33,234 bases of DNA from an uncultured Sphingomonadaceae bacterium (GCA_964523215.1 CAZFYJ010000002.1:1-33234), one strand, 5' to 3'. Counted from the first letter of the stretch, positions 22,893 to 33,234 are shown. Notes: generated by a model not told the origin, from the sequence alone. A program made the numbers and translations.

Positions 22893-23942
22893 GTGCCACA
22901 ATTTTGCGAAACCCGTGCCGCCACAGCGCATGCCGATCCTGCGAGCGAGGCGATGCAGCGCCGGCCGATCGGGATGTGCGCCGCTGCACCCGGGGCCCGT
23001 GAGATTGTTGCAATCGCGCATGACGCGCCCGATTTCGGCTGGATTGGCAACAGCGTTGCAGCCCAGCGCGTGCGTGCAATGGTGCGGCGGGTTGCGCCGG
23101 CGGCGTGCACCGTGCTGATCGAGGGGAAAACCGGCACAGGCAAGGACGTGGTTGCCATGGCGCTCCACCGCCAGGGACTGCGTGCGCGGCGCCCGCTGGT
23201 CACAATCAACTGCGCCGCCATCCCCGAAACCCTGATCGAGGGAGAATTGTTCGGCTATCGCAAGGGCGCGTTCACGGGCGCGCACTGCGGCTATGCGGGC
23301 AAGATTGCGCTTGCCGATCGCGGCACGCTGTTTCTCGACGAAGTGGGCGAGCTCAGCCTTGCTGCGCAGGCCAAATTGCTGCGGGTTCTGGAAAATCGGG
23401 AGGTTGTTCCCCTGGGCGGGGCAGAGCGGCGCATTGTTGATGTGCGCATCATTGCGGCAACCAATCAGCATCTCGAGGCTGCTGTTGCGGCGGGGCGCTT
23501 CCGCGCGGATCTGTTTTACCGGCTGGCGGTGGTGCGCCTGTCGCTGCCCGCGCTTGCCTCTCACCGGGAGGATATTGCGCCGATCGCGCAGCATCTGGTG
23601 GCGCGCATGGCAGCCGACATGCAGCTGGCCGAGGTCCACATTGCCGCCGATTGCCTGGCCGCATTGAAGCAGCATGACTGGCCGGGCAATGTGCGCGAGC
23701 TGCGCAACGCGCTCGAACATGCGCTGGTGATCGCGCCCGATCCCACACGGTTGACGGCGGATGATCTGCCCGATTCAGTGCGCTTTGTGCCTGTGCCCCC
23801 GGCCGGGCGCGATGCTGCCGACGATCGCCAGCTGCTGGTCGACGCGCTGGCGGCGTGCGCCGGGAAAAAGGCCGATGCGGCCCGCATGCTCAAATGCTCG
23901 CGCATGACACTCTATCGCCGCATGGAGCGTGCCGGCCTGTAA
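22893..23942 (+). CDS. Sigma-54-dependent transcriptional activator (bEBP) lacking an N-terminal sensory/receiver domain
   Basis: AAA+ core with Walker A (LIEGKTGTGKD), ELFGYRKGAFTGA (the GAFTGA sigma-54 contact loop) and Walker B (GTLFLDEVGEL). It has a C-terminal Fis-type HTH (KKADAARMLKCSRMTLYRRMERAGL). Only about 45-65 residues precede the AAA+ domain. The start is ambiguous: GTG 22893 or ATG 22953. Confidence 0.9.
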   Translation: MPQFCETRAATAHADPASEAMQRRPIGMCAAAPGAREIVAIAHDAPDFGWIGNSVAAQRVRAMVRRVAPAACTVLIEGKTGTGKDVVAMALHRQGLRARRPLVTINCAAIPETLIEGELFGYRKGAFTGAHCGYAGKIALADRGTLFLDEVGELSLAAQAKLLRVLENREVVPLGGAERRIVDVRIIAATNQHLEAAVAAGRFRADLFYRLAVVRLSLPALASHREDIAPIAQHLVARMAADMQLAEVHIAADCLAALKQHDWPGNVRELRNALEHALVIAPDPTRLTADDLPDSVRFVPVPPAGRDAADDRQLLVDALAACAGKKADAARMLKCSRMTLYRRMERAGL

Positions 23943-23946
23943 CAGC

Positions 23947-23989
23947 TGTCACAGCCGGCGTGACGGAAACTGTCACAGCACATGTGACA
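23947..23989. promoter_or_regulatory. Two tandem palindromes TGTCAC-N7-GTGAC(G/A): candidate enhancer (UAS) sites for the adjacent bEBP
   Basis: Site 1 is 23947-23965 (tgtcacagccggcgtgacg) and site 2 is 23971-23989 (tgtcacagcacatgtgaca). The centres are 24 bp apart and lie about 85 and 61 bp upstream of the -24 GG. An A6 tract (24008-24013) lies between the sites and the promoter. Confidence 0.6.
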
Positions 23990-24039
23990 CATCATGGCCT
24001 TGCGCACAAAAAACGCTTTCGGATCAATGCTTACGCAAC

Positions 24040-24055
24040 TGGCATGCTGCTTGCT
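24040..24055 (+). promoter_or_regulatory. Sigma-54 (-24/-12) promoter
   Basis: TGGCATgctgcTTGCT matches TGGCAC-N5-TTGCW at all but one position, with exact GG-to-GC spacing. It lies directly downstream of a bEBP gene and the palindromic sites, and directly upstream of the CIS operon. Confidence 0.7.
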
Positions 24056-24066
24056 GATGAAAGGGC

Positions 24067-31836: not shown

Positions 31837-31855
31837 TGCGAAAGGATGGCCCAGC

Positions 31856-32038
31856 ATGGCTGTGATCATTGATGAAATCATTGCGGAAGGCCCGCCGCCT
31901 TCGCCTGCCATGCCCGCCGCAGGTGCCGCGCAATCGCCCCCTGCCGATGCCCGCGCGGCAGGGCTCGCCGTGCAGCAGCGGATGATGGACGACATGCACC
32001 GCCTGGCACAGCGCCAGTCGCGCATCTGGGCCGATTGA
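31856..32038 (+). CDS. Small (60 aa) CIS-associated protein, possibly DUF5908-like
   Basis: The start is the ATG at 31856, inside track ORF 31769..32038. The N-terminus MAVIIDEIIAEG resembles the MPIEI+EL-type start of small eCIS ORFs as I recall them. It sits in the 217-nt gap between the tube-initiator-like and hub genes. Confidence 0.45.
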   Translation: MAVIIDEIIAEGPPPSPAMPAAGAAQSPPADARAAGLAVQQRMMDDMHRLAQRQSRIWAD

Positions 32039-32053
32039 GCGACGAGGCAGGAC

Positions 32054-33142
32054 ATGGCGCTGGACGATCCCGTTGCGGTCTATTCCACCCGGCCCACGAT
32101 CGAAGTGGGCGGCATGGATTATCCTGCGCTCAACAGCAACATCGCGGCCATTCGCGTCAGCGAAGCCCTGGGCGGTCTGACGACGGCAGAGCTGAGCGTG
32201 GTCGATTGGGTGGCGCGGGCGGATGGATCGAGCAGCTTTGGCGCAGACAGCGGATCGCCGCTCGTGCTGGGTGCGTCCTTGCGCGTCTTTCTTGGCCCGG
32301 CAGAGGTGCTTGCGTCCGAGGTCTTCGATGGGCAGATCGTGGCCATCGAGGCTGAAATGCGCCGCGATAGCCCGCCCGCTTTCACGGTGATTGCCGAAGA
32401 TCGCCTGTTTGCCGCCCGCCGCATCCGCAAAAGCCGCACCTTTGAAGCGGCGAGCCTTGCCGATCTGGTCAGCGCCATCGCCGCAGACCATGGCCTGACC
32501 CCCGAAGTGCGCGACGGGCTGGATACGCCTTTCAGCGATTGGGCGCAGCAGGATGAGAGCGATCTGGCCTTTCTGCGCCGGGTTCTGGCCCGGTTCGATG
32601 CCGATGCCCAGGTGGTCGGCAATCGCCTGCAGGCCGGACGGATTGGCGTCGATCGGCGCAGCGCGATCACGCTGGCGGCAGGCACCACGCTCGAATCCGT
32701 GCGGATCACGGCGGATATGGCGCACCAGATCAGCAGCACGCGGCTGGACAGTTTTGATCCCATCAGCGGCGATCCAGTGACCGGCGAGGCCGAAGCAACG
32801 GGCAGCGGGCCGGGCCGCGGGCGCAGCGGCAAGGATGTGCTGGCCGCCGATTTTCAGGCGATTGCGCTGCCGCTTGGCCATCATGGGCCGATGACGGCAG
32901 AGGAGGCAACGGCAATGGCCCAGGCCGAGGCGGACCGCCGGGCGCGCAGCTTTGTGACGGCCCGGGGCACCGCGATCGGCAATGCCCAGCTGCGGGTTGG
33001 CAGCTGGATCACGCTGGCGGGCGTCAATCCCGCCTTTGCCAATGATTATGCAGTGAAGCAGGCCGTGCATCGCTATGAGCCGGTGGAGGGCTATCGCACC
33101 GATTTTGTCGCGGAATGTGCCTATCTGGGAGCCGCGGCATGA
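32054..33142 (+). CDS. Phage late control gene D (gpD/gp27-like) baseplate hub protein
   Basis: 362 aa. It contains FDGQIVAIEAEMRRDSPPAFTVIAEDRLF...RKSRTFEAASLADLVSAIAADHGL and QDESDLAFLRRVLARFDADAQVVGNRL, and the C-terminus GNAQLRVGSWITLAGV is typical of the gpD family. Confidence 0.8.
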   Translation: MALDDPVAVYSTRPTIEVGGMDYPALNSNIAAIRVSEALGGLTTAELSVVDWVARADGSSSFGADSGSPLVLGASLRVFLGPAEVLASEVFDGQIVAIEAEMRRDSPPAFTVIAEDRLFAARRIRKSRTFEAASLADLVSAIAADHGLTPEVRDGLDTPFSDWAQQDESDLAFLRRVLARFDADAQVVGNRLQAGRIGVDRRSAITLAAGTTLESVRITADMAHQISSTRLDSFDPISGDPVTGEAEATGSGPGRGRSGKDVLAADFQAIALPLGHHGPMTAEEATAMAQAEADRRARSFVTARGTAIGNAQLRVGSWITLAGVNPAFANDYAVKQAVHRYEPVEGYRTDFVAECAYLGAAA

Positions 33143-33234
33143 GTGTCGCATCGCCCTTTGCCGTGCCGGCCAACTGGCTGGCCGGGGCGCATCTTGCCAA
33201 GGTGCGATCGGTGCAGGATCCGCAACGCATGGGC
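33139..33234 (+). CDS. gpV/gp5-like spike (baseplate assembly protein V / VgrG OB-fold), N-terminal 32 aa only
   Basis: The ATG at 33139 forms an ATGA overlap with the hub stop. MSVASPFAVPANWLAGAHLAKVRSVQDPQRMG resembles the 'G..a.V....DP...gRV+V' start of gpV/VgrG spikes. The gene is truncated by the window end. Confidence 0.55.
   Translation, partial: MSVASPFAVPANWLAGAHLAKVRSVQDPQRMG

Follow-up and report, generated by a model that had tools for sequence, protein, structure and literature searches.

The conserved front third of a probable lineage II contractile injection system cluster, with an adjoining sigma-54-type activator gene, in an uncultured Sphingomonadaceae bacterium

The window analyzed here is an entire NCBI contig of 33,234 bp from an uncultured Sphingomonadaceae bacterium (GCA_964523215.1, CAZFYJ010000002.1:1-33234), which is high in G+C (60-70%) and ends inside a spike gene. 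Its part from 22.9 to 33.2 kb very probably forms the first third, at the 5' end, of a chromosomal gene cluster ~30 kb long for a contractile injection system (CIS) that belongs to lineage II of the Afp/PVC superfamily and has the operon type of Leptothrix cholodnii. Eleven genes lie on the + strand between 24067 and 33234 at spacings of -4 to +66 nt, with several starts overlapping the preceding stop, and no terminator-like signal within the operon exceeded the shuffle expectation (Table 1). A preliminary description of this DNA had listed the eleven co-directional genes, all of which are present, but the start it gave, 22893, belongs to a twelfth gene that it had not listed and that encodes a sigma-54 activator. 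Two further starts were corrected, that of the tube paralogue to 29882 and that of the sheath probably to 25901. The operon is a further member of a catalogued family for which no experimental study was found, and not a new kind of machine.

Table 1. Features of the operon and its control region in the window (positions counted from the first nucleotide of the contig).
Feature	Position	Strand	Basis
Sigma-54 enhancer-binding activator, PspF-like	22893..23942	+	Sigma54_activat 1e-63, AAA_lid_14 2e-19, HTH_8 6e-9
Two tandem 19-nt dyads, CTGTCACAG-N5-GTGAC, 24 bp apart	23946..23988	+	direct and inverted repeats
Putative sigma-54 (-24/-12) promoter, TGGCATgctgcTTGC	24040..24054	+	motif match; 124-bp gap before the operon
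DUF3467 small protein, 117 aa, first operon gene	24067..24420	+	PF11950, 29.6 bits (cut-off 25)
Cap / tail terminator, Pvc16/Afp16/Cis16-like, DUF4255, 203 aa	24420..25031	+	Pvc16_N 3e-16, 60 bits (cut-off 27)
Conserved 268-aa protein	25028..25834	+	no family above cut-off; weak CarboxypepD_reg/Big_1
Main contractile sheath, Cis2/Afp2-like, 578 aa	25901..27637	+	Phage_sheath_1 7e-25, sheath_1C 2e-14
Inner tube, Cis1/Afp1-like, 151 aa	27667..28122	+	T4_gp19 6e-32; TIGR02241 99 bits (cut-off 62)
Sheath paralogue, 571 aa, C-terminal sheath core only	28167..29882	+	residues ~353-555 match solved sheaths
Tube paralogue, Afp5/Cis5/Cis1b-like tube adaptor, 193 aa	29882..30463	+	T4_gp19 6e-21
Afp7/Pvc7-like tube initiator, 458 aa	30460..31836	+	CIS_tube 1e-13; Afp7 best solved match, 3.5e-4
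Conserved 60-aa protein	31856..32038	+	N-terminus MxVIIDE, C-terminus RxxRLWAD
Baseplate hub, gp27/VgrG N-terminal half	32054..33142	+	Phage_GPD 6e-14; Salmonella eCIS VgrG 1e-13
Start of gp5/gpV-like spike, 31 codons, cut by contig end	33139..33234	+	translation SVASPFAVPANWLAGAHLAKVRSVQDPQRMG

The assignment to the CIS superfamily is supported by comparison of the main sheath with solved structures. The best match was 9EZM (E value 1e-107), the sheath of the Halogeometricum borinquense "archaeal T6SS" (type VI secretion system), a CIS of clade IIa that is attached to the cytoplasmic membrane (PMC11566945). It was followed by 8BKY (2e-98) and 8BL4 (6e-96), which, together with 9GTP and 9GTS, represent the cytoplasmic CIS of Streptomyces coelicolor, subtype IId (PMC10066040, PMC12237407). 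Afp3 (4e-51), the Anabaena tCIS (8e-49), PVC (4e-48) and AlgoCIS (5e-46) came next, the pyocin sheath (9e-16) and T4 gp18 (3e-7) further behind, and among phage records only distant matches were found, the best with 36% identity over half of the protein. A canonical T6SS (T6SS-i to iii) was rejected, as the sheath is of the single-chain phage type rather than the two-chain TssB/TssC type; the TssB/C, TssJLM and ClpV families had no match among the proteins of the window and its relatives that were scanned. The operon had been described as one of the extracellular CIS (eCIS) type. Membership in the CIS superfamily is upheld, whereas the lineage is II and not the Afp/PVC lineage I, and "extracellular" is not established, the nearest solved relatives being cell-bound.

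The remaining structural genes agree with this assignment. The best solved matches of the inner tube were the tubes of the Salmonella salamae eCIS, AlgoCIS and tCIS, while the tube paralogue reached 78 bits with TIGR02241, above the cut-off, and 3e-10 with CIS5_fam. The sheath paralogue, whose best phmmer match to a solved sheath was 1.4e-15, is kept in all relatives and probably forms a sheath adaptor layer like Afp3/Afp4. The start of the cap gene was fixed at 24420 by alignment and overlaps the upstream stop codon; the cap had no sequence match in the PDB. The hub covers positions 71-347 of the VgrG_rel model (NF033848) and the separate spike open reading frame (ORF) of a relative covers positions 374-546, indicating that VgrG is split into two proteins. 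The spike itself was assigned by the likeness of its translated start to the N-termini of the Phage_base_V proteins of relatives (227-235 aa). All profile families named in the preliminary description were thus matched, with the sheath paralogue below threshold in Pfam yet clear against solved sheaths.

An alignment with five relatives divides the Afp7-like protein into an N-terminal CIS_tube domain, an Ala/Gly/Ser-rich region of about 220 aa and a short conserved C-terminus. The Ala/Gly/Ser-rich region varies in length among relatives and is partly conserved in sequence, and it is a speculation that it might substitute for the tape measure missing from lineage II. The DNA encoding it (window 31000-31700) carries 18-bp and 6-bp repeats at 31156-31235.

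The same operon type has already been catalogued. In the eCIStem operon table (Geller et al., 2021, PMC8213781), Lcho_3032-Lcho_3056 of Leptothrix cholodnii SP-6 begin with a sigma-54 activator (Sigma54_activat + HTH_8), a 71-aa ORF, DUF4255, a 269-aa ORF, sheath, tube, sheath and tube, continue with afp7, a 57-aa ORF, Phage_GPD, 229-aa and 555-aa ORFs, gp25, Baseplate_J and a Tail_P2_I-like gene, and end with two small ORFs, ORFs of 309, 644, 1660 and 540 aa, an AAA ATPase and a DUF4157+OmpA gene. The novelty that the preliminary description had hoped for is therefore confined to the uncharacterized biology of the system and does not lie in the operon type. According to the supplement of the same study, 8 of 160 Sphingomonas genomes have eCIS loci; one of them is strain UNC305MFCol5.2, of which we recovered one locus (L010). 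The supplement also lists Sigma54_activat as a "shell" domain with 49 occurrences and DUF3467 as 17.6-fold enriched in eCIS operons, and GerE is the only conserved regulator discussed in the main text (PMC8213781).

To follow the cluster past the contig end, we used relatives comprising three individual loci (L002-L004), 44 loci from GTDB species genomes and 15 metagenome loci. Hosts of the GTDB loci belong to Sphingomonadales, Acetobacteraceae, Albimonas, Caulobacteraceae, Thauera/Zoogloea, Methylococcaceae, Steroidobacteraceae and, in the Chloroflexi, Chloroploca. The predicted layout of cap first, then sheath and tube, tube initiator, and split hub and spike recurs gene for gene in more than 40 relatives, where each operon gene, including the 60-aa ORF, has 40-90% identity. 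In Altererythrobacter segetis and in metagenome-assembled genomes of Allosphingosinicella, the loci have the same order and continue past the spike. After the hub come a 228-aa Phage_base_V spike, a protein of about 530 aa, gp25 and a 736-aa Baseplate_J protein (TIGR02243, 251 bits). An 892-aa Cis12-like protein (NCBIfam CIS12_fam, 6e-24) and two small proteins follow, then proteins of 295 and 715 aa with N-termini matching CIS13_fam, and finally proteins of about 1476 and 500 aa without an assigned family and an Afp15-like AAA+ ATPase (winged helix plus AAA). Using tblastn with a reference set, we found every downstream gene kept in order in almost all 44 GTDB loci. The 1476-aa and 715-aa proteins had no sequence match in the PDB. 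In these relatives no PAAR protein was matched at E<=0.01, a threshold at which a divergent PAAR could be missed, and no Afp14 tape measure was detected.

The fetched loci end 0.4-0.8 kb beyond the ATPase gene, and show no conservation of their tails from genus to genus, which would be expected of payload genes. Among these loci, a recognizable DUF4157 (HExxH) gene follows the AAA+ ATPase gene only in Chloroploca (L045:~19800-20624 and L046:~19860-20624), as does Lcho_3055 in Leptothrix; DUF4157 is associated with eCIS toxins by Geller et al. (PMC8213781). At the other end of the A. segetis cluster, just upstream of its GerE regulator, lies a gene for a Tle1-like T6SS lipase (PF09994; L002:1-739), which is possibly a payload or possibly an unrelated neighbour.

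By gene content, largely as seen in the relatives, the cluster fits best with subtype IIb, although Chen et al. (PMC6899500) defined the subtypes by Afp11 phylogeny. According to these authors, afp8 is split into two ORFs (gp27-like and gp5-like) in IIa, IIb and IIc, afp12 and afp13 are kept in IIa and IIb, a single afp11 is found in IIb and IId, only IIb, which also has a small afp6-like gene, is without PAAR (afp10), and lineage II is without afp14. The relatives have one Baseplate_J protein, one CIS12_fam protein and two CIS13_fam N-terminal domains. The split VgrG, the single Baseplate_J, the Cis12/13 proteins and the lack of a PAAR match would together place the family tentatively in IIb.

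We then analyzed the control region. Models of bacterial enhancer-binding proteins align to the activator only from residue ~30, and the PspF model does so from its own position 2, which argues for an activator without an N-terminal sensor domain; its true start is likely the ATG at 22953, giving a protein of about 329 aa. The GAFTGA loop is intact (YRKGAFTGA in the translation). Orthologues occupy the same position in L003, L050, L053, L055, L060 and L061, and in the homologous intergenic region of all six of these loci TGGCAY-N5-TTGC is found. TGTNAC half-sites recur at the equivalent place in relatives, and the two dyads of the window would be candidate upstream activator sequences for the activator. 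As read from the sequence, the region appears to have the classical arrangement of activator gene, upstream activator sequences and sigma-54 promoter. A second TGGCAT-N5-TTGC at 8453-8467 was rejected as a promoter, since it lies inside a polysaccharide-flippase-like gene (7218-8759) and is most likely a chance match.

Two alternative regulatory modules front otherwise orthologous operons (window 22893-24420; L002:875-2433; L049:4647-5834; L050-L061). One consists of the sensor-less sigma-54 activator, the putative -24/-12 promoter and DUF3467 as the first gene. In the other, a GerE/LuxR regulator is encoded on the opposite strand, and the first gene, for a protein of 116 aa, is an unrelated one (L002, L051, L054, L056 and a Roseomonas plasmid). 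In the loci examined, DUF3467 occurs only alongside the sigma-54 activator and never with GerE. The 116-aa first gene was considered as a diverged DUF3467 and rejected, since neither alignment nor Pfam gave any similarity. Sigma-54 activators control some T6SS clusters, and PspA, the product of the first gene of the sigma-54-driven psp operon, inhibits PspF. Based on the co-variation with the activator and on the PspF-like architecture, we hypothesize that DUF3467 may be part of the regulatory module, in which it would serve as anti-activator.

Taken together, these data suggest the following mode of action. The PspF-type, sensor-less activator would bind the two dyads and use ATP to open the sigma-54 promoter at 24040-24054, which would drive the whole operon. 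Hub, spike, Afp7-like initiator and tube paralogue would together nucleate a tube of the 151-aa protein. The 578-aa sheath would wrap this tube, the sheath paralogue would form an adaptor layer, and a DUF4255 hexamer would cap the particle. The wedge (gp25, Baseplate_J and the Cis12-like protein), the Cis13-like peripheral proteins and the Afp15-like ATPase would be encoded past the contig end, as in relatives. Contraction of the sheath would then push tube and spike through a membrane.

Several observations weigh against this interpretation. The contig holds only the first ~10 kb of the cluster, and wedge, ATPase and payload are taken from relatives. The sheath paralogue matched sheath_1C in Pfam at 3.5e-4 and 21 bits, under the cut-off of 26.9. 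Sigma-54 control was read from the 33-kb contig alone, with rpoN beyond its reach, and TGGCAT-N5-TTGC is by itself not significant in the window (two exact matches versus 0.59 expected), so that the weight of the motif comes from its position and conservation. Moreover, the -12 element ends 13 nt before the ATG of the first gene, compared with 35-45 nt in relatives, and an mRNA starting there would be almost leaderless. The literature searched gave no experiments on a Sphingomonas CIS, a sigma-54-controlled CIS or a member of subtype IIb. Since no experimental work on the operon type was found, any statement on particle formation, release and target is a prediction from the genes.

With regard to where the machine acts, we consider the chances of a released, extracellular particle to be about even. 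Possible, though we hold it more tentatively, is that the machine fires while attached to the membrane of the producer or in its cytoplasm, with the ~530-aa protein encoded in relatives as anchor or trigger. The gene of this protein lies directly after the spike gene, outside the window (L003:11763-13349, L002:11766-13415, and the same position in L005-L048). Its last ~45 residues are near-invariant from Alphaproteobacteria to Chloroflexi (GWLCSFSIPIITLCAFIVLNIFLSLFDLIFRWMLFIKICIPIPK), and this hydrophobic tail contains Cys. An AlphaFold model (pLDDT 78.6) shows a globular part, predicted with confidence, and at the C-terminus a long hydrophobic helix. The protein has no family in Pfam or NCBIfam, its homologues are all annotated as hypothetical, and Foldseek matched it to nothing in either PDB or BFVD. 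Its role may be that of a membrane anchor or trigger, comparable to CisA or Hbor_38620, or that of a membrane-active spike tip.

For a cell-bound machine speak the post-spike protein of more than 40 relatives, ending in the near-invariant hydrophobic tail GWLCSFSIPIITLCAFIVLNIFLSLFDL.. that is modelled as a long C-terminal helix, and the precedents within lineage II, which employ dedicated membrane proteins (CisA and Hbor_38620). The nearest solved sheaths also come from the membrane-bound haloarchaeal CIS and the cytoplasmic CISSc (modes of action: PMC11566945, PMC12237407), but the mode of action is not determined by sheath similarity. In addition, no test run gave homology to CisA for the membrane-tailed protein, which also lies outside the window, whereas the two proteins with Cis13-like (fibre-attachment) N-termini in relatives favour release, and the DUF4157 gene after the ATPase gene in Leptothrix and Chloroploca likewise argues against a cell-bound machine. 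A more specific proposal, which we regard as rather unlikely, is a third kind of cell-bound lineage II CIS in diderms, in which the ~530-aa protein, of novel fold, would tether or trigger the baseplate or form a tip that replaces PAAR, combined with anti-activator feedback by DUF3467.

A decaying remnant that makes no particle is very unlikely. The contig does end in the spike gene and so does not show whether the cluster is complete in this genome, but all 12 ORFs (activator plus 11) are intact, the spike being cut only by the contig end, start and stop codons overlap as in translationally coupled operons, and every gene is conserved at the level of identity given above. Still less probable is an R-type tailocin, a pyocin-like bacteriocin. 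Such a tailocin is also a headless contractile tail encoded on the chromosome, and related class II systems have a baseplate wedge similar to the one in pyocin R2 (PMC12237407). The pyocin sheath is nevertheless a match many orders of magnitude weaker than the CIS sheath, and the cap-first order, DUF4255, the Afp7-like protein, the split VgrG-related hub and spike and the AAA+ ATPase are CIS hallmarks; furthermore, the relatives showed neither a holin/endolysin cassette nor a P2-type fibre/chaperone pair. That the genes are the tail module of a myovirus prophage has a negligible probability: sheath, tube, gpD-like and gpV-like genes are common to P2-like phages, and there is a weak likeness to phage sheaths, but the operon keeps its form across several bacterial classes and the Chloroflexi, the left flank is housekeeping, and the DUF4255 cap, the Afp7-like initiator and, in relatives, the AAA+ ATPase speak against a phage. 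The statement in the preliminary description that capsid, portal, terminase, integrase, lysis and replication genes are missing holds for the whole 33-kb contig and was extended to the ~30-kb clusters of the relatives, and the lack of head, packaging, integrase and lysis genes in these clusters, from regulator to ATPase, is the reason why both the prophage and the tailocin were rejected.

Upstream of the activator gene, the left flank consists, as had been described, of ordinary metabolic genes through nadC (lnt, a lipid kinase, lptF/lptG, a flippase-like gene, an M16 peptidase, GDPD, LysR, MFS and nadC). In the 603-aa ORF at 15960-17771, the LysR helix-turn-helix and substrate-binding domains are confined to residues 296-586, and the first ~295 codons probably stem from an ORF call that was extended too far in this high-GC DNA.

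The 268-aa protein was modelled by AF2 as tandem Ig/CnaB-like beta-sandwiches (pLDDT 90.8); its best structural neighbours in the PDB were Gram-positive pilins (E~4e-4), no solved CIS chain matched the model, and the Roseomonas protein at the orthologous position is annotated as a carboxypeptidase-regulatory-like domain protein. Orthologues of the 60-aa ORF, 56-57 aa in length, are found at the same position in L002, L003, L050, L053 and L060, and as Lcho_3041 in Leptothrix. The ORF had no PDB or NCBIfam match, and no link to Afp6 was obtained.

Homologues of the hub number in the hundreds, and the named ones are from Sphingomonadales. No other record of the exact hub protein was found, and a first genome scan with the hub alone as query gave no match. 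The exact tube protein recurs solely on a 1035-bp Logan contig (L001) of SRR11509471, so that the same or a very close organism is present in that sample. The closest relative found, L050 (ERZ1066122 NODE-322, 51.6 kb), has a sheath and a tube 87% and 81% identical to those of the window, while its cap, hub and other genes are just 50-64% identical. This uneven divergence could reflect a stronger constraint on sheath and tube or an exchange of modules. Among PLSDB plasmids there was no exact family member, the best sheath match being 51%. On the Roseomonas marmotae plasmid the lineage II layout is related but not the same, with an Afp7 of LysM type and a GerE regulator.

Most catalogued CIS loci are of lineage II; the only systems of this lineage that have been studied are those of Streptomyces (IId) and haloarchaea (IIa), and neither is extracellular. 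The present operon type is found widely among soil and freshwater Proteobacteria. Culturable relatives such as Sphingomonas gei, S. kyeonggiensis, Altererythrobacter segetis, Novosphingobium beihaiensis, Thauera phenolivorans and Leptothrix cholodnii could reveal how a machine of this kind operates in a diderm cell. With the sensor-less sigma-54 activator next to it, the operon would have a simple genetic switch. The window holds the conserved front third only, and the parts that decide class or cargo (fibres, membrane-tailed protein and payload) lie outside it. The most useful leads are the activator switch, the pairing of DUF3467 with the activator and the conserved membrane-tailed protein.

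Compared with known systems, the Afp/PVC particles of Serratia and Photorhabdus (subtype Ia; 6RAO, 6J0B) share Afp1/5 tubes, Afp2-4 sheaths, Afp7, Afp8 and Afp16 with the window, and Afp9, 11, 12 and 15 have counterparts in the relatives. Their sheaths are far more distant (4e-51 to 2e-23), however, and these systems have the cap gene at the end, a VgrG encoded by one ORF, an Afp14 tape measure and PAAR. The Streptomyces coelicolor CISSc has the second-closest solved sheath and a cap-first order, and its accessory membrane protein CisA is needed for firing. In contrast to the split VgrG of the window, subtype IId has a single-ORF VgrG and lacks Cis12/13-type fibres (PMC6899500); no CisA homologue was detected here, and regulation and host envelope differ. 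The Halogeometricum borinquense CIS, also of lineage II, has the closest solved sheath, with ~50% identity in the conserved parts, and shares the phage-type single-chain sheath, the DUF4255 cap and the AAA+ ATPase. It differs in having cap and ATPase genes on the opposite strand, no second sheath and several DUF4157 genes, and also in its archaeal host, its unrelated membrane anchor Hbor_38620 and the lack of sigma-54 control.

The regulatory part of the window resembles the PspF-pspA circuits, although DUF3467 has no detected similarity to PspA: the activator consists of AAA+ and helix-turn-helix domains only, it adjoins a putative -24/-12 promoter, and the first gene encodes a small protein that co-varies with it. 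The Leptothrix operon differs in its first small ORF (71 aa with no Pfam family listed, versus the 117-aa DUF3467 protein) and in its afp7 product, which is ~130 aa shorter (324 versus 458 aa). Its DUF4157+OmpA gene follows the ATPase gene, in a region that here lies beyond the contig end. In gene order and in near-identical gene sizes, compared by means of the published table alone, the two operons are alike.

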